From IMG/VR virus record IMGVR_UViG_2695420733_000001: DNA of 20,026 nucleotides; one strand, written 5' to 3'. Position numbers and translations under genes: made by a program. Each line of letters opens with the position of its first letter. The stretch's first letter is position 1. Below are positions 3,142 through 18,376 of this stretch, one piece after another. The notes under the pieces were generated by a model. That model saw nothing but the letters and a program-made list of their open reading frames with translations. It was not told where the DNA came from and ran no database searches. This stretch comes from a virus (taxonomy: Duplodnaviria; Heunggongvirae; Uroviricota; Caudoviricetes).

Positions 3142-4165
<1,024 letters not shown>

Positions 4166-4169
<4 letters not shown>

Positions 4170-4477
4170 AGATATTTATGATGAGGACGCTCGTGCTTAT
4201 TGGCAGGATTTTCAATCTTAAAGGAGTACTGATGCTGCAGATAAGACTCAACTTTTTCTGACAATTTTTCTGCTACTTCCAGGAAGACTTGCCGGACGCT
4301 CCTTCTGGCTGCTGCCTCATAAAACTCCAGCGCAGCTCCTTCAACACGGTCCATGGCGACATCCAGGTCAAAAATTTCACCGTCAAAGCGTTCTTTGTCC
4401 TGTAAGGCTACAGTTACCGTAACTTTATTCTCAAAATTACGGACTCCTTTCACAACCAGTTCATAGTCTTGAGTCAT
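4166..4477 (-). CDS. ydfR: Prophage protein YdfR-like, 103 aa, inserted between holin and endolysin
   Basis: ATG at 4477 with SD GAGGAGAG; ATGA overlap with the endolysin start; length and position match K-12 ydfR. Confidence 0.75.
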
Positions 4478-4481
4478 TGGA

Positions 4482-4697
4482 TTACTCTCCTCTCGCAGCC
4501 TTACGCCTGTCTTCTTTAATCTTGAAATAAAGATTTGTCAGATACGTCAGCAGGCCAAAAACCAGGCTACCCAGCACACCGATTGCAGCCCACTGTGACG
4601 GAGTTACTTTATCGAGTAACTGCAATGCCCAGAAACCAGCATTACCCGCCGATGTGCCATAGGCAACACCTGTTGTTAACTTATCCATTGATTTCAT
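4482..4697 (-). CDS. essQ: Class II holin/pinholin with dual-start motif MKSM, 71 aa
   Basis: Met at 4697 with a GAGG SD; a second Met three codons later (M-K-S-M) is the classic holin/antiholin dual start. Two TM segments. The track's 96-aa version is an upstream open-frame extension. Confidence 0.8.
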
Positions 4698-4828
4698 ATC
4701 CTCACCCCGATGTACACGGATGGTGCAATATGTTTGAAAAGATCGGAGTCTACGGGGTAGTTTTGACAGCACACGTTGTTCTCAACGGCGCTAAAAAAAC
4801 ATACACATTAAAAATGTGGGTAATTATT

Positions 4829-5168: not shown

Positions 5169-5449
5169 GAGATTGTGGTGCTTTTTGTGGGAGTCATCCA
5201 CTTACGCACTTTGTTTTGCCATGCCAGCAGTTAGCTTCTGCTGTAAAACTATTCATGCAGCAAACCTGCACTTCACCACAATGGTTAGCATACTTTTCCT
5301 GATTAAGATTTTGCCAAATATGCTAGCCATTGTTTCATGTATTGGACCTCCTTACTTTTTATTAAAGAGATCCAATATTCACTACTCTGTCCGTATCTCT
5401 ACTCAGGCATCAGCCTTCTTCGTTATCGTATACAGACGAGCGATGAATT

Positions 5450-5665
5450 TTAATCAGTAATGATGACATTTGCTGCTGCAGGACCTTTAGCACCACTCTC
5501 TATAGAGAAGGTAACCTTTTGACCTTCAAATAAGGTTCGATAATTATCATTCTGAATCGCAGAAAAATGCACAAACACATCTTTACTACCATCAACAGGA
5601 GAAATAAAGCCGAAACCTTTATCAGCGTTAAACCATTTTACTAAACCAGTCATTTTATTTGACAT
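5450..5665 (-). CDS. cspB: Cold-shock protein CspB, 71 aa
   Basis: [71 protein letters not shown]. Confidence 0.9.
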
Positions 5666-5965
5666 TCTACATTCCTTAACTTGAGCCTTTCGGCATAAAT
5701 GGTTTGCATAACAGAAACGACTTCGTACTTAATTGGAGAGACTCAAAGAAGGAATAAGTGAATAACACCTGAAATGAGAACTGCTTTAGTAAACTACTTC
5801 GTATATCGTCTGTTCTTCAAACCGACGCAATCATTAACGCATAGTTGAACATATGAAGCAATGTTTATTTTAGACATCCAGCCATCTTCAACCCCATCAA
5901 AAAACTATAGCTTTCTTCAGGAACGTGTGTATAGTGCGCCAAGTTATCAGTATTAAGGAATTTTT

Positions 5966-6599: not shown

Positions 6600-7352
6600 T
6601 TATCTCGTCACCTTCCTCAATTGCGCTTCCGCGTATGCTTCTTCCTGCCAGCACTTTGTTACCAGTTTACCAATGACGTCCGCATACCCCTTATACCACT
6701 GATAATCGGTCAGGTCTGGTACCAGCTTCTGGACATGACGTCGTGCCAGCGTGGTCGGTAAACGACTAAACCGGTTTCCATTACAACGCCCACAAATCTT
6801 ATATACCGGTACGCCATGAAACCGGGTTCTTTTTTCATCCAGAACAATCCCTTTACCCTTACACCCTCTGCACGCTGTGCTGGCTTCGCCCTTACCATGG
6901 CAATGCTGACATAGTTCCTTCACCCATTCTTCCTTGATTACAGATTCCCCGCGTCTGTAGTGTTTCACCACTTCGCGCAATACATTATAAAATCCCGTAC
7001 CTGAACAATGCTCACAGCGAGCCTTACTTGCCGCAGACCTGGAGTAATCAGCAAAGGCAAAACTCACGAGGTAAGGAATAATCTGTAACCGGATTTCTTC
7101 ACTCAATTTGTTCAATGTCGGGTTATCCAGTGCCATCGCGTAATTTAGCAGGCCTTCAATCGCAAACTGAGGGTCCTGAACACCAACTTTTGCCAGAAAT
7201 AAGGCCAACCCAAGTGGTGCTTTCGACTGCACCATCCCCTGCGCTGCCATTACATCCGTAATTGTTAAACAACCGGTGCCTGTCGCTGGAGCGTCATCGC
7301 TCAATTTTGGAGATTTTGGGGAGTAATATTTTGGTAAGGCTTCAAGGTTCAT
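6600..7352 (-). CDS. quuQ: Late-gene antitermination protein Q, 250 aa from MNLEALPKY
   Basis: Four CxxC pairs (CEHCSGTG, CQHCHGKG, CRGCKGKG, CGRCNGNR); sits just upstream of the late promoter. The track's 260-aa ORF is a 10-codon upstream extension. Confidence 0.8.
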   Translation of the reverse strand: MNLEALPKYYSPKSPKLSDDAPATGTGCLTITDVMAAQGMVQSKAPLGLALFLAKVGVQDPQFAIEGLLNYAMALDNPTLNKLSEEIRLQIIPYLVSFAFADYSRSAASKARCEHCSGTGFYNVLREVVKHYRRGESVIKEEWVKELCQHCHGKGEASTACRGCKGKGIVLDEKRTRFHGVPVYKICGRCNGNRFSRLPTTLARRHVQKLVPDLTDYQWYKGYADVIGKLVTKCWQEEAYAEAQLRKVTR

Positions 7353-9229: not shown

Positions 9230-9385
9230 TTACTCCTCAGGTTCGTAAGCTGTGAAGACAGCGACCTCCGTCTGGCCGGTTCGGATTCGTACCTCGCAGA
9301 GGTCTTTCCTCGTTACCAGTGCCGTCACTATGACGGTTAAACAGATGACGATCAGGGCGATTAACATCGCCTTTTGCTGCTTCAT
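9230..9385 (-). CDS. hokD: Hok-family type I toxin HokD (RelF), 51 aa
   Basis: Hand translation MKQQKAMLIALIVICLTVIVTALVTRKDLCEVRIRTGQTEVAVFTAYEPEE; below the track cutoff. Confidence 0.85.
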   Translation of the reverse strand: MKQQKAMLIALIVICLTVIVTALVTRKDLCEVRIRTGQTEVAVFTAYEPEE

Positions 9386-9456
9386 AGCCTGCTTCTCCTG
9401 TCAACGCAAAGCAGAAGTGTCACCTTCGGTGCGAAACAGAGATGTCATGCTTTGGT

Positions 9457-9744
9457 TCAGAGAATGCGTTTGACCGCCTCGCTATATACTTCCGAGCGTT
9501 CTCTTTTCCCAACAGAAATCACGAAAACGACAACTTTCTCGTCTATAACCTGGTATACAAGGCGATAGCCTGAAGACCGGAGCTTAATCTTGTAACAATC
9601 AGGCATACCACGGAGCTTGTTTGCTTCAATCCGGGGTGACTCAAGTACTTCAACCAGCTTCTTTTTCAACTGTTCACGTACCGTCGAGCCCAGCTTTCGC
9701 CATTCCTTTAGTGCCCGCTCGTCAAAATCCAGAAAATACGCCAT
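9457..9744 (-). CDS. relE: Type II toxin RelE (ribosome-dependent mRNA interferase), 95 aa
   Basis: MAYFLDFDERALKEWRKLGSTVREQLKKKLVEVLESPRIEANKLRGMPDCYKIKLRSSGYRLVYQVIDEKVVVFVISVGKRERSEVYSEAVKRIL; start overlaps the relB stop. Confidence 0.9.
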   Translation of the reverse strand: MAYFLDFDERALKEWRKLGSTVREQLKKKLVEVLESPRIEANKLRGMPDCYKIKLRSSGYRLVYQVIDEKVVVFVISVGKRERSEVYSEAVKRIL

Positions 9745-9983
9745 CAGAGTTCATCCAGCGTCACACGTACTGGCTTAGGATTACGAAGCCGTTCTTTCAC
9801 TATCTCCACAAGTTCAGCATCTTCATCACTCAGGAGTGTCTGTTTGAACGGCAAGCGTTCATTGTCAGCGATATACTCGAGCATGAGACGAAGCGCTTCA
9901 GAAGGAGTTACACCCATTTTTTCAAGCGCGGCGTAAGAACGCGCTTTAAGTTCATCGTCAATACGCAGGTTAATGCTACCCAT
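9744..9983 (-). CDS. relB: Type II antitoxin RelB, 79 aa
   Basis: MGSINLRIDDELKARSYAALEKMGVTPSEALRLMLEYIADNERLPFKQTLLSDEDAELVEIVKERLRNPKPVRVTLDEL. Confidence 0.9.
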   Translation of the reverse strand: MGSINLRIDDELKARSYAALEKMGVTPSEALRLMLEYIADNERLPFKQTLLSDEDAELVEIVKERLRNPKPVRVTLDEL

Positions 9984-9993
9984 GTCTTACACC

Positions 9994-10022
9994 TCTTGTA
10001 ATTACAAATGTCATTACAAGTA
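9994..10022. promoter_or_regulatory. relO operator / relBE promoter region with TTGTAAT/ATTACAA repeats
   Basis: TTGTAATTACAA (perfect 12-bp palindrome) and TGTCATTACAAG read directly upstream of relB. Confidence 0.7.
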
Positions 10023-10313
10023 TCGCACTACAACATGCTTAGGGCAAGTCACGAAGGAAGTCAGAAAGTAGTCGTAAGAACGGTGATCACTGTCCGCTTT
10101 GTGCCAGGAGCAGCCATTGCTAAGTCCATCCTGTATTGTGCAGGTCAGCTCGTTTTTAAAGAGTCCGGCCATCATCTTACTGGTACAGACACCATATACT
10201 TTGTGACGGTCAGGCTACATATGCACAACTCAACTTATTCATCTATTTTTTGCTTTAGCATGTCAGTGTTGCTTTCTCGTCGGCGGGTGAGCGGTGACCT
10301 GACCTGTCGATAA
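10008..10313 (+). CDS. ydfV: Possible YdfV-like ORF, 101 aa; coding status doubtful
   Basis: ATG-initiated ORF whose length matches K-12 ydfV (101 aa) as recalled; overlaps the relBE operator and has odd composition. Confidence 0.3.
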   Translation: MSLQVSHYNMLRASHEGSQKVVVRTVITVRFVPGAAIAKSILYCAGQLVFKESGHHLTGTDTIYFVTVRLHMHNSTYSSIFCFSMSVLLSRRRVSGDLTCR

Positions 10314-10465
10314 AGGAACGTAACACGTTTTATGCAACACCCGCATGCGGCAGAAAATTATTGCCGAACGTTTACCCCTGTCAACAAGCTTTACTTTCTG
10401 AGGCGCGCCAGCCCGCGAGGAAAACAATCTGAACATCAAACAATTAATGACACAAGAAATACGAT

Positions 10466-10492
10466 TAAAGATTTTTTTGTGCATGCCGATAG
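10466..10492 (+). promoter_or_regulatory. Sigma-28 (FliA) class 3 flagellar promoter for flxA
   Basis: TAAA, 15-nt spacer, GCCGATAG; matches the sigma-28 consensus TAAA-N15-GCCGATAA. Confidence 0.75.
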
Positions 10493-10515
10493 TGCTTTTT
10501 TAAAAGGAGAAATCT

Positions 10516-10848
10516 ATGTCTGTCACAATTCAGGGAAATACCTCAACCGTTATTTCAAACAACTCCGCCCCGGAAGGAACATCAGAAATAGCCAAAATCA
10601 CAAGACAAATTCAGGTGCTGACTGAAAAGCTTGGGAAAATCTCATCGGAAGAGGGGATGACGACACAGCAGAAAAAAGAAATGGCTGCATTGGTACAGAA
10701 GCAAATTGAAAGCCTCTGGGCTCAACTGGAGCAGTTGTTAAGGCAGCAGGCAGAGAAAAAGAATGAAGACGCGACAGTTCAACCTGATAAAAAAGAAGAG
10801 AAAAAAGACGATACAAATACCGCTGGCACCATTGATATTTACGTCTAA
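10516..10848 (+). CDS. flxA: FliA-regulated protein FlxA, 110 aa
   Basis: Strong SD AAGGAG; MSVTIQGNTSTVISNNSAPEGTSEIAKITRQIQVLTEKLGK...; the sigma-28 promoter lies upstream. Confidence 0.85.
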   Translation: MSVTIQGNTSTVISNNSAPEGTSEIAKITRQIQVLTEKLGKISSEEGMTTQQKKEMAALVQKQIESLWAQLEQLLRQQAEKKNEDATVQPDKKEEKKDDTNTAGTIDIYV

Positions 10849-10862
10849 GTGACAGCCGTATT

Positions 10863-10886
10863 GTGGCCCTCATCGGGCCACTTTTC
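10863..10886 (+). terminator. Rho-independent terminator after flxA
   Basis: Stem GTGGCCC / GGGCCAC, loop TCATC, then TTTT. Confidence 0.7.
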
Positions 10887-10926
10887 GCCATCAGCCTTTT
10901 CTTTAAAGACATATTATCTTTGTATC

Positions 10927-10976
10927 ATTTCTGATAGTTAACATTACAAGAATTTCTGATAGTTAACATTACAAGA
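10927..10976. repeat. Perfect 25-bp tandem direct repeat (ATTTCTGATAGTTAACATTACAAGA x2)
   Basis: Two identical adjacent copies; each holds AGTTAACATTAC, whose reverse complement GTAATGTTAACT recurs at 12788-12799. Confidence 0.8.
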
Positions 10977-11309
10977 TATAAGTAATGGACGCACTCCCAA
11001 TTAGTCTATTTAAATCGCCACGAGTTTAACTGACAACCCATGATCAATTATGAATTGCAACTATTTCTGTAGTCACTTTTGTGGGGACAGTCCACAAAAC
11101 TGCCAACTTCCGCTTCTTGCTCTTAGCGGACATTAGCATAGGCTATTTACCATAACGCCTCATTACGCGCACCGCCCAGACTGACTCAGCGCGTTTCTGG
11201 CATATCCCCGGTAAAACAAGTAACAAACCACCCGAAAATGAACACCAGAAACGCGACTTAAGAATCTACCCTATGAATGGATATGCACTCAACCGAATCG
11301 ATCTTGGTT

Positions 11310-12623
11310 TCAATCTTTTTTATCGGGATCAGGCTTCTTTTTAGGTAACTTCGGGGGCTTAACTTGCTGATGACTTTGCGTTCGGCGCGTAAGCCAGGGA
11401 TGGTCAGCTTTAGGTTTAACATAGTATTTTGAGCGTAAATCAATACGGGCATTATCCACTCGTTCATGGACACTCTTTTCATCATCCAGTGGTATAGGCT
11501 CCGGGCCATCAACATACTTTTCCCAGCCCAGCGCTTTCCCGTCATACAGAACGTTAATTTCACCGTCAAAGTTCTCGCATACAGTAACAACCGAATGCCT
11601 AAGTCGATATCCCCGGCCCTCACTGCGTACCTGAAACGCACTGCTTTTGTACTGGAAAGTGAGATTTTTAGACAGAACGCGCTTCGCCTGTAGGCTGAAG
11701 ATATAACCCAGTTCCTCTTCAGAATGGTGCACATCAAGATGAGCATTATCAGTAGTACGAGGCGACGTAGCGAACCGGTTGTTATAGGCTTCAATAAAGG
11801 TCGGCAACCATGCATTTGCTGTTTCAATATCACTGATATTCTGAAGCCGCATTTCTTTGACCAGCCTGTCCTGTAGTGTCTGATTGGCGCGCTCTACCCG
11901 CCCTTTTGCCTGCGGGCTGTTGGCATGGATTGGCTCGATGCCCAGTGTCTTTATCGCACGAGTGAACTGGGTCAGCTCACCTTCCCGCTCTGGGTTATTT
12001 ACCCTGAATATACTGTGTCTATCAGAGTAGAGAGCGAGCGGTACGCCATGATCATTAAGGTAACCCCGGAGGGTTTCCATGTAAGCCCGGGTTGTTTCAG
12101 CAGGCACAAAACGCAACGCCATCAACGCACTGGTGGCATCATCAATGAAAACGATCAGTGTACATCTGGGGCCTCGATTTTCAAACCAGTCATGAGGTGA
12201 GCCATCAATCTGGATCAGTTCACCGTAAGATGGTCGTCGCATGCGGCGTTGATATATACGGGCAATTTTACGACGGCGTTCACGCCATAACCCCTCTTCT
12301 ATCATCCACTTTCTGAGAGTTTCAACGGATAAAGATAAACCGTGTATCTCGCGCAATTTTTCGCACGCAAACGTAGGTCCAAAATCAGCGTAACGGCCTT
12401 TGAGGAGTGAAATTACTGTTGCTCTGAATTCAGTAGAAAAGGAATTATTAGGACGCTTTCCACGTCGGTGGGAAACCAGACCAGAAGGCCCTTCATTTCT
12501 ATACCGTTGCACCAGACGTTTAACCTGCCGAATAGAAATGCCAATGCGTGCCGCAGCTTGTTCCTGAATAATCTGAAGTCGGTGGAGTTCCTTATGACTC
12601 ATCGTAACAGTCTCTTTGATCAT
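11310..12623 (-). CDS. DDE transposase with N-terminal HTH and integrase-core (rve-like) domain, 437 aa; IS481-like or ISNCY/IS1202-like
   Basis: N-terminal HTH-like MSHKELHRLQIIQEQAAARIGISIRQVKRLVQRY; DDE signature candidates LIQIDGS, VFIDDATS, KGRVERANQTLQDR. Family is judged from architecture, not a search. Confidence 0.75.
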   Translation of the reverse strand: MIKETVTMSHKELHRLQIIQEQAAARIGISIRQVKRLVQRYRNEGPSGLVSHRRGKRPNNSFSTEFRATVISLLKGRYADFGPTFACEKLREIHGLSLSVETLRKWMIEEGLWRERRRKIARIYQRRMRRPSYGELIQIDGSPHDWFENRGPRCTLIVFIDDATSALMALRFVPAETTRAYMETLRGYLNDHGVPLALYSDRHSIFRVNNPEREGELTQFTRAIKTLGIEPIHANSPQAKGRVERANQTLQDRLVKEMRLQNISDIETANAWLPTFIEAYNNRFATSPRTTDNAHLDVHHSEEELGYIFSLQAKRVLSKNLTFQYKSSAFQVRSEGRGYRLRHSVVTVCENFDGEINVLYDGKALGWEKYVDGPEPIPLDDEKSVHERVDNARIDLRSKYYVKPKADHPWLTRRTQSHQQVKPPKLPKKKPDPDKKD

Positions 12624-12957
12624 GAAAAATCCCCCAGAGAATTGTCTGGGGACATTTTAGAATGGTTCAAAGGGGACATTACAGCTTGGTGTTAACAATA
12701 GCCTGCTTCTCCGTGCCTTTCGGCACGTAAGAGGCTAACCTACATGTGTCTAGCATGAAATTGGCCTCAGATTAATGTTAAGCGTCTTGCAGGACGCGTA
12801 ATGTTAACTGGGGCTTTTCTCTATCTGCCGTTGGTGTCCATGCCCGAGGCAGATAGCCTCAAGCACCCGCAGTCATTCTACTTAACTAAGATTTCCCCGC
12901 AAACCGTTTTTGTCCAGCACAGTAAATATCCAACTAAACCAATGGAGTTCGCTGTAT

Positions 12958-13137
12958 TTACCGCCAGTATTCAATGCACATGACCGCCATGAACACCCCT
13001 AAAAAAAGGGCATTTATATATCCAAATATTAATATCAAAACATCAACTTTTTCCATATACCTTGCTGTGAAGATGATGGGCATACATGATGCGAACAACC
13101 AGAACGCAACAAACAAAAACTGCAATGCGTTTTTCAT
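12958..13137 (-). CDS. Small two-helix membrane protein, 59 aa (MKNALQFLFVAFWLFASCMPIIFTARYMEKVDVLILIFGYINALFLGVFMAVMCIEYWR)
   Basis: Consensus SD AGGAGG 5 nt before the ATG; two hydrophobic helices. The track's 72-aa ORF is an upstream extension. Confidence 0.5.
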   Translation of the reverse strand: MKNALQFLFVAFWLFASCMPIIFTARYMEKVDVLILIFGYINALFLGVFMAVMCIEYWR

Positions 13138-13379
13138 TATTCCTCCTACAATCAATGTGCAATTACATTTAAACACACCTCAATTTGGCCGGACATATAA
13201 ATATCTAAACCAGAAAAAATCACTTACATAGCGTTACAAACTCTTTAGTCTAAAGGTTCATCGTAAAACATTCCCCATACTTATCAGTCCGTTCCGCGCC
13301 AGGTAGCTCATTGCCTTATCTGGCAACCTGTAATCAGGTTTCCGCTTTTTCAGTTGGCTGGTCGTTTAACCGACATAGT

Positions 13380-14030
13380 TAATCCATTAATCTAGTTGCC
13401 GGATGTTGGTGGATTTTCGCGTTTTAGTTGTTCATAAAAGTGCACAGCTTTAACCAGTTCTTCTGATGTAACTGGGACTGGTGAGGCAGTGAATAAGGCC
13501 TGAATTTGATAGTTCGGCCTGTCGTTACAATCCTCTTTTTTCGGTACATATTTCCAGTCACCAGACCACTACTTCCCCTGAAAGTCCGTAACGCCTTTTT
13601 TCACGTAGCGATATCGCCATGCCACTGGTTTTGCTTGCCCCGCCGTTTCATGCCCTTCCTGATAATTAATCTCGCTCATTCATCGCCCCACTCATCACAA
13701 TATGCTTCGACCGGAGTTTTTCCCGCTTCATAGTCATCACGCTAGGATTCGACATCAGCAGCACTTCCACCGCGTAACTCACCATAGTCCATTAATAGTT
13801 CATCCCGCTCTTCAAAACTGATGTTATATTTGGCTGAACAAAAATCAGCCACTTTGTTCTTCCTCATCGTCTTTTATTTCGTGGTATGAGTAATTGCAGT
13901 AGTTAAAGAAAATTTCTTATGCTCCGTCATGAATTTCCTCAGGTGTTGCGTCATCGTCCACTTCGAATACATCCTCAAAATCTCCACCAGCTATTCCCGT
14001 TTCAATAATAATTTTGAACTTTCGCATTTC
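13380..14030 (-). pseudogene. Decayed coding region: a run of 23-41 codon minus-strand frames that look like frame-shifted pieces of former phage genes
   Basis: Adjacent short frames ending ...KHIVMSGAMNERD, MSEINYQEGHETAGQAKPVAWRYRYVKKGVTDFQGK, ...WSGDWKYVPKKEDCNDRPNYQIQALFTASPVPVTSEELVKAVHFYEQLKRENPPTSGN; no ORF of 60 aa or more on either strand. Confidence 0.35.
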
Positions 14031-18318: not shown

Positions 18319-18376
18319 TTTCTGGTGACGTTTGGCGGTATCAGTTTTACTCCGTGACTGCTCTGCCGCCCTTTTT
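18319..18376 (+). ncRNA. dicF: DicF small RNA (Hfq-dependent, represses ftsZ and other mRNAs)
   Basis: TTTCTGGTGACGTTTGGCGGTATCAGTTTTACTCCGTGACTGCTCTGCCGCCCTTTTT matches DicF as recalled, including its terminator hairpin and U-tail. Confidence 0.9.

Follow-up and report, generated by a model that had tools for sequence, protein, structure and literature searches.

A hydrophobic 59-codon reading frame upstream of hok/sok in Qin-type prophages of Escherichia coli is very probably a gene for a small protein with two predicted membrane helices

Introduction

Does a short hydrophobic open reading frame (ORF) that RefSeq leaves without annotation encode a protein, and if it does, what could its product do at the membrane? 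We address this question for ORF59, a frame of 59 codons on the minus strand of the IMG/VR virus record IMGVR_UViG_2695420733_000001. The stretch of DNA analysed is 20,026 nucleotides (nt) long, is referred to here as the window, and is a Qin-type lambdoid prophage. A preliminary description, made from the letters of the window, had drawn attention to ORF59 as an unannotated two-helix membrane protein beside an insertion sequence (IS), and had remarked that small proteins of this sort in prophage accessory regions are often type I toxins, holin-like proteins or superinfection-exclusion factors.

We conclude that ORF59 is very probably a genuine protein-coding gene. The evidence that carries this conclusion is a comparison with a second, diverged subfamily in E. 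coli, in which the frame is kept without a gap. The function of the product is a more tentative matter. ORF59 may be a small inner-membrane modulator made early after prophage induction, a reading that we hold with somewhat less than even confidence, and its main rivals are a membrane toxin and a partner of Hok. The whole explanation, gene and mechanism together, we regard as evenly balanced between right and wrong. Should ORF59 prove to be translated, RefSeq annotation has systematically missed a membrane microprotein that a large share of E. coli genomes carries. Its prevalence, the consistent wrong-strand annotation of its locus and its fixed adjacency to hok/sok are reasons why ORF59 suits experiments.

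ORF59 and its start signal

The location first given for ORF59 was confirmed by the sequence and by its translation. The coding sequence (CDS) occupies 12958..13137 on the minus strand and consists of 59 codons and a TAA stop, with the ATG at 13137-13135 and the TAA at 12960-12958; its product is MKNALQFLFVAFWLFASCMPIIFTARYMEKVDVLILIFGYINALFLGVFMAVMCIEYWR. A Shine-Dalgarno (SD) motif, AGGAGG, lies on the same strand at 13142..13147. The motif is perfect, as had been described, and it is separated from the ATG by 4 nt (AATA) rather than by the 5 nt then reported. Both strands of the window together contain four AGGAGG motifs, and only the one before ORF59 is followed, in the arrangement AGGAGG-N3-10-ATG, by an ORF of at least 59 amino acids (aa). 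In random sequence with the composition of the window or of the local region, 0.03-0.04 such arrangements are expected per 20 kb. The combination of SD, ATG and ORF at this position is unlikely to have arisen by chance.

A second subfamily points to constraint on the protein

Close relatives of ORF59 cannot decide its coding status, because their nucleotide identity is at least 95%. An exhaustive phmmer (HMMER) search of 1.84 billion cluster representatives returned a second E. coli subfamily, found as a 59-aa sequence (P0039) that is 41% identical to ORF59 over residues 1-59 (E=1e-8). The common form of this subfamily (P0044) is likewise 41% identical to ORF59 and occurs on at least 1,000 contigs. 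The reference copy of the paralogue (L089 7001-7180, in E. coli CP042246.1) lies between ttcA and uspF/ompN beside an integrase fragment. We take this interval to be the Rac attachment region, and the locus looks like a prophage remnant.

The reading frame is conserved in these related prophages, with the same length, start and stop, and the two proteins align without a gap. The alignment contains 21 invariant residues (M1, L5, L8, W13, S17, C18, P20, I21, I22, T24, L36, F38, G39, N42, A43, L44, F49, I55, E56, W58 and R59). At the nucleotide level the window and the reference copy are identical at 107 of 180 positions, divided among the first, second and third codon positions as 35/60, 43/60 and 29/60. 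Of the six frames, only that of ORF59 has no stop in either sequence. It scores a BLOSUM62 sum of 154 with the stop column included (153 without it), compared with -2 to 62 in the other five frames, and Nei-Gojobori counting gave a pN of 0.34 and a pS of 0.72 between the subfamilies.

We then asked how often such similarity would appear if the 73 observed substitutions were scattered over random positions with their base spectrum unchanged. None of 20,000 trials attained the score of 153 (mean 62, sd 18), and in 1.9% of them the frame was without a stop. Homology between the subfamilies extends beyond the ORF, through a non-coding block of about 135 nt upstream (13138..13273, minus) and a stretch of about 38 nt after the stop (12920..12957, minus). 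In pairwise alignment these flanks contain several indels, and there is none in the ORF. We read the pattern between the subfamilies as the signature of a coding gene under long-term purifying selection. Thus, evidence of purifying selection at the protein level supports the proposal that this prophage accessory region holds a true gene for a small membrane protein with two helices.

Variation within the subfamilies and the case against a gene

An earlier comparison of polymorphism was biased, since its loci had been picked by ORF similarity. It was repeated with IMG/VR loci fetched not by the ORF but by an invariant 30-mer whose first base lies 113 nt before the ATG. ORF59 is intact in 114 of the 116 evaluable flank-anchored loci. 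The other two copies are disrupted, one of them by truncation at a run of seven T residues (T7) in codons 44-46 (13001..13007, minus). Common single-nucleotide polymorphisms fall at 5 of 180 positions in ORF59, versus 9 of 83 upstream and 24 of 200 downstream, where 16 indel positions were found in addition. The common variants of the protein, A16V, V31I, I37M, Y40H and M53T, are conservative hydrophobic swaps.

Several observations weigh against ORF59 as a constrained and expressed gene. All polymorphic sites are nonsynonymous, both in the Qin-type ORF (10/10; IMG/VR loci L177-L295) and in the paralogue (3/3; loci L088-L096 and L169-L176). With about 80% of sites nonsynonymous, the neutral probability of 13/13 is roughly 0.05. 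Recent evolution of ORF59 may therefore be relaxed or diversifying rather than purifying, on numbers too small to decide. The databases also hold frameshifted, truncated and IS-interrupted copies, many of them altered at the T7 run and others cut by IS1. The T7 run is the site of most frameshifted variants, and four of them (P0019, P0022, P0024 and P0025) are frameshifted exactly there; these could be sequencing errors or slippage. One copy (L007 3990-4180, in E. coli ECMA0423, CP178302.1) has several single-base indels and a mutated SD upstream of a hok/mok that looks intact, and it represents either a decayed allele or a low-accuracy assembly. This copy had been considered as a 53%-identity homologue and was rejected, because it consists of the same DNA, altered by several frameshifts, rather than of a diverged gene.

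The expression signals are a further point on this side. In the flank-anchored sample AGGGGG is found in 61 related alleles and AGGAGG in 56, and the SD region of the paralogue reads only CAGGGAC. Consensus and position weight matrix (PWM) scans, whose reach does not extend to weak or non-sigma70 types, found no convincing promoter within 220 nt upstream of ORF59 in either subfamily; the same PWM scan detected the hok promoter. Between the subfamilies dS is saturated, and the dN/dS of about 0.19 is to be taken as indicative. There are only two subfamilies, confined to E. coli and Shigella, and the comparative evidence amounts to one deep split. Finally, AT-rich intergenic DNA tends toward hydrophobic ORFs by composition (bioRxiv 10.1101/2024.02.17.580829).

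These points could be explained if ORF59 had arisen by chance in AT-rich intergenic DNA, or were a relic decaying there, with its hydrophobicity supplied by T-rich composition. Such a reading gains from the frequency of hydrophobic intergenic ORFs, from the uniformly nonsynonymous recent polymorphisms, from the disrupted copies, from the pseudogenes directly upstream and from the empty annotation of the RefSeq matches listed. It does not explain why length, start and stop are shared by proteins that are 41% identical without a gap at 59% nucleotide identity, with codon-position periodicity and with a similarity that no randomisation reached. It is also at odds with the stops in all other frames of the paralogue and with the restriction of indels to the flanking non-coding DNA. 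We consider a chance or relic origin very unlikely.

Distribution and annotation

Conservation across E. coli prophages, which the preliminary description had proposed to check, takes the form of the two subfamilies. Qin-type ORF59 DNA (at least 95% identity) is present in 1,567 of 5,426 complete E. coli genomes, and paralogue DNA is present in 1,045 of them, including ST131, NC101, ABU 83972 and ATCC 11775. When GTDB genomes, IMG/VR and metagenomes were scanned, neither a third subfamily nor a homologue beyond E. coli/Shigella-type DNA turned up; a lone 9.5-kb record labelled 'Klebsiella' is a Qin-type segment as in the window. In phage and plasmid collections, too, tblastn returned nothing beyond the other subfamily and nearly identical copies in E. 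coli prophages. The deposited phage genomes with ORF59 are PhiR42_1, vB_EcoS-640R1 and vB_EcoS-813R8.

The frame had been called unannotated and without a counterpart in K-12 Qin. The first statement holds for RefSeq, where no annotation lies under any of the 60 ORF59 matches or the 40 paralogue matches listed. It does not hold for GenBank and UniProt, which carry ORF59 as a 'hypothetical protein' or 'membrane protein', mostly in a 72-aa form that begins at an upstream GTG. We rejected the 72-aa form. The GTG is not shared between the subfamilies, and the paralogue has an in-frame stop five codons before its ATG and no alternative start. Because the ATG is the only start possible in both subfamilies, the product is the 59-aa protein. 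The second statement was correct: the ORF59 sequence is missing from the Qin region of K-12 MG1655, where a deletion joins ydfW to ydfX/dicC. Since that deletion removed ORF59, the classic small-protein surveys in K-12 could not have detected it.

A different gene has been drawn over the same DNA. Some gene callers place an 85-aa ORF on the plus strand (12974..13231) instead of ORF59, and a CDS of 83-85 aa is annotated there in three phage records and in one record annotated by PGAP. It is named 'hornerin' in ON470612 and ON470619 and 'hypothetical protein' in PV340562, and it appears as WP_341485279.1 in NZ_CP148542.1. If these annotations were right, the true gene would be the antisense one. 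The antisense frame contains two stops in the paralogue and has a BLOSUM62 sum of 62, its ATG is not preceded by an SD, and its product is rich in K and N and resembles low-complexity sequence. The stops in the paralogue effectively refute it as a real gene, and we give it next to no likelihood. Some phage and plasmid records put a probably spurious opposite-strand gene in the place of ORF59.

ORF59 is a new microprotein family of a familiar kind, being hydrophobic, prophage-borne and missed by annotation, and as such it holds little surprise for the specialist. It resembles the 'Entero67K' microproteins (bioRxiv 10.1101/2024.02.17.580829), which are hydrophobic ORFs of at most 70 codons that annotation has missed and which, like ORF59, show signs of purifying selection and have no Pfam domain. 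Peptide strings of ORF59 were not found in the part of the supplementary files of that Enterobacteriaceae microproteome study that could be searched (bioRxiv 10.1101/2024.02.17.580829), and a literature search for these strings found no papers.

Predicted structure and comparison with known families

The two transmembrane (TM) helices first predicted for ORF59 are borne out by hydropathy and by structure prediction. Kyte-Doolittle windows of 19 residues peak at 2.14 (from residue 7) and 2.39 (from residues 33/34), both above 2.1, and the grand average of hydropathy (GRAVY) is 1.27. The AlphaFold2 model is a helical hairpin, with helices at residues 2-25 and 31-58 joined by a short loop (mean pLDDT 73.6). 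The predicted layout is TM1 at about residues 4-25, a loop RYMEKVD, and TM2 at about residues 33-55. The protein probably adopts an N-in/C-in topology with a short periplasmic loop. This orientation is suggested by the basic N-terminus (K2 in ORF59; R2 and K3 in the paralogue), the terminal R59 and the acidic loop of the paralogue.

At E<=10, ORF59 had no match among the Pfam, NCBIfam, PHROG and PADLOC models. The paralogue gave only sub-threshold matches, to DUF4212 (PF13937; 13.9 bits, E=0.07, against a gathering threshold of 30 bits) and to phrog_6298 (E=0.12), a PHROG family of unknown function. DUF4212 proteins are small, two-helix and subunit-like. Neither a sequence profile search nor a Foldseek search with the AlphaFold2 model found a match in the PDB. 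The search with Pfam models of small toxins and holins that had been suggested for ORF59 gave no significant match, and the classes first offered for it, type I toxin, holin or superinfection-exclusion factor, are not established, as no such family matches at E<=10.

We compared ORF59 with small membrane proteins of known systems. Like Hok/Gef (PF01848), it is small, hydrophobic, predicted to lie in the inner membrane and prophage-borne, and it adjoins a hok locus. It differs from Hok in having no sequence similarity, two helices rather than one, and no periplasmic Cys-containing tail. In addition, no mok-like overlapping frame, fold-back mRNA elements or sok-like RNA were detected over ORF59. 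We conclude that ORF59 is not a member of the Hok family.

GhoT is a type V toxin of 57 aa with two transmembrane helices. ORF59 belongs to the same size class and has the same predicted two-helix hairpin, although no GhoT-family Pfam model matches at E<=10 and no gene for a GhoS-like RNase antitoxin lies beside ORF59, which lies between an upstream pseudogene and the hok leader. Superinfection-exclusion proteins such as T4 Imm and HK97 gp15 are also short phage inner-membrane proteins with one or two helices. Imm and gp15 act through specific contacts with membrane proteins, as we propose below for ORF59. No Pfam, PHROG or PADLOC match ties ORF59 to proteins of the Imm, SieB and gp15 kind, and the consensus and PWM scans found no promoter of its own that would serve expression in the lysogen.

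The predicted pair of TM helices and the probable N-in/C-in topology are also those of class II holins, including the P21 pinholin (PF04971). ORF59 could then be a prophage-encoded class II holin, an antiholin or a helper in lysis timing. It has no holin family match, its C-terminus is just EYWR (ECWR is also seen in the alignment of the subfamilies) with no charged tail, and no dual-start motif is kept in both subfamilies. Moreover, the window has a separate lysis cassette at 3142-4772, 8 kb from ORF59 and after the Q antiterminator, which consists of a P21-type holin (PF04971, 115 bits), DUF1327, a lysozyme (PF00959) and an Rz-like gene (PF10721). A role as holin or lysis-timing protein is highly improbable.

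Proposed role and the toxin alternative

We propose that ORF59 would be a 59-residue helical hairpin of the inner membrane. It is encoded by an accessory gene of the nin-type region in lambdoid prophages of the Qin/Rac-like kind, found in E. coli and Shigella, and its ancestral place is immediately upstream of hok/mok/sok on the same strand. The strand that encodes ORF59 in this nin-type region also encodes dicC, ydaT, the replication genes, DUF977 and the methyltransferase. Because no convincing promoter of its own was found, expression would most likely come from read-through of the rightward early operon, from the dicC side, when the prophage is derepressed, with translation starting from its own SD site.

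The protein would act by specific helix-helix contacts, either through self-association or by binding an inner-membrane protein of the host or phage. A cluster of polar or small invariant residues that includes W13 occupies the periplasm-proximal halves of the helices, with S17, C18, P20 and T24 facing F38, G39, N42, A43 and L44, and an IExWR C-terminus is fixed in both subfamilies. Specific packing is proposed because the invariant residues form this cluster and C-terminal end and are not generic hydrophobics. From these residues, we infer that ORF59 would behave more like the small membrane modulators or exclusion proteins of phages than like a pore former without specificity.

A membrane-damaging toxin would make use of many of the same properties. 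On this account ORF59 would be a type I or GhoT-like toxin, silenced by an unrecognized antisense RNA or by the prophage repressor, and its expression would kill the cell or arrest its growth. It is small and very hydrophobic and has a strong SD, it adjoins the membrane toxin locus hok/sok, and the prophage region is rich in toxin-antitoxin genes (relBE, hokD). However, no Hok, Ldr, TisB, Ibs, GhoT or other Pfam, NCBIfam or PADLOC model matches at E<=10, and ORF59 has two helices where type I toxins typically have one. No Rfam family lies over 12958-13137, the nearest match being the hok leader/sok at 12697-12868, and promoter/terminator consensus and PWM scans found no promoter-like site on the antisense strand common to both subfamilies. 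The paralogue is also intact in a decayed prophage remnant from which the neighbouring hok has been deleted and in which no partner gene is visible. We consider the toxin account to be on the unlikely side, and continue to prefer a modulator.

ORF59 lies upstream of a split hok/sok locus

In phage vB_EcoS-640R1, and in 79 of 103 evaluable related loci, hok directly follows ORF59 on the same strand. The order after the ORF59 stop in hok-bearing loci is a likely hok promoter, the hok leader with the mok start and sok, and the hok CDS. The promoter in the window (12875..12902, minus) reads TTGCGG (12897-12902), 16 nt, TAGAAT (12875-12880); its assignment to hok is inferred from its position relative to the leader, and it is not part of ORF59. 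The paralogue locus retains a 3' fragment of the hok CDS about 65 nt past the stop. Because hok follows in both subfamilies, their ancestor had ORF59 directly upstream of hok.

This arrangement raises the question of whether prophage hok loci act alone or with a membrane partner in induction, exclusion or lysis. ORF59 might work with Hok, either as an immunity or modulator protein or as the second part of a membrane-attack cassette that aids phage release. The position immediately upstream of hok, on the same strand and in both subfamilies, would fit such a partnership, and there is a precedent in hokW-sokW of prophage Sp5, a hok/sok locus reported to facilitate phage release (PMC8621323). The adjacency is nevertheless explained by common descent, since the flanks are homologous too; it is synteny and not independent evidence of a functional link. 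A 701-nt query that takes in the hok leader as well is matched in part by 4,314 E. coli genomes, far more than the approximately 1,555-1,567 with ORF59, which suggests that hok-type leaders occur without ORF59. ORF59 also persists where hok is split by an IS, as in the window, or deleted, as in the paralogue. A role as Hok partner is decidedly unlikely. In a broader form of the idea, which we rate as rather unlikely, ORF59 and hok/sok would make up a conserved two-gene phage membrane cassette, in which ORF59 is a new kind of two-helix partner, acting either on Hok as its modulator or immunity protein or independently as an effector of exclusion or abortive infection. If this were true, such a cassette would be carried by a large share of E. 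coli genomes and be invisible to standard annotation.

In the window the hok locus is in two parts. An orphan hok mRNA leader with the mok start and the sok region (12697..12868, minus; Rfam RF01794, 104 bits, full model) remains beside ORF59. The other half, the hokD CDS (9230..9385, minus) that once lay downstream of ORF59, is now found with a duplicated SD behind relBE. Between them is an IS1202/ISNCY-family element of 3,299 bp (9399..12697), which split hok at its start codon. Its terminal inverted repeats agree at 24 of 34 positions, and on either side of it stands a perfect direct repeat of 15 bp (ATAGCCTGCTTCTCC, at 9384-9398 and 12698-12712). Part of the IS1202 family typically makes long target duplications (PMC10132070). 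An empty site of the element is present in phage vB_EcoS-640R1 (L004 6420-6445). ORF59 had been described as next to the IS. The end of the element at 12697 is 260 nt from the ORF59 stop, and the hok leader/sok region lies between the two.

The element carries a full-length transposase of 437 aa (11310..12623, minus; ISNCY/IS1202 family, NF033594, 456 bits) together with flxA, ydfV and relBE. This content suggests that relBE reached Qin as cargo of a transposable element, which would account for the relBE-hokD arrangement. The insertion at the hok start codon would also be the reason why hokD is without its own regulatory region in K-12-type Qin prophages. The transposase is truncated in ATCC 8739 and in K-12, and 'ydfW' of K-12 corresponds to the last 49 transposase codons.

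Prophage setting

Read along the minus strand, the window has dicC, a YdaT-family gene, a replication-type gene, DUF977, an S-adenosylmethionine (SAM) methyltransferase and two pseudogenes, and ORF59 follows. After ORF59 come the hok leader, the IS-family transposase, flxA, ydfV, relBE, hokD, rem and ydfU, and then a Q-type antiterminator and cold-shock genes. The two genes directly upstream of ORF59 (13258-13679 and about 13850-14030, minus) are pseudogenes in identical RefSeq records, one a hypothetical protein with a frameshift and the other a DUF7167 gene that an internal stop interrupts. Because both of these neighbours are annotated as pseudogenes, ORF59 has stayed intact inside a decaying stretch.

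Folding of the leader upstream of ORF59 gave no significant structure (z = +0.74 and -0.75). A 13-nt palindrome, CTTTAGACTAAAG, lies upstream of ORF59 at 13243-13255 (minus). Its counterpart in the paralogue locus, CTTCAGTCTGAAG (L089, about 6876-6888), has changes in both arms and remains a palindrome. The element could be a small hairpin or a protein-binding site. Elsewhere in the window, Rfam matches comprise two cspA-type thermoregulator leaders (2540-2925 and 5434-5826, minus) and the DicF RNA (18320-18371, plus).

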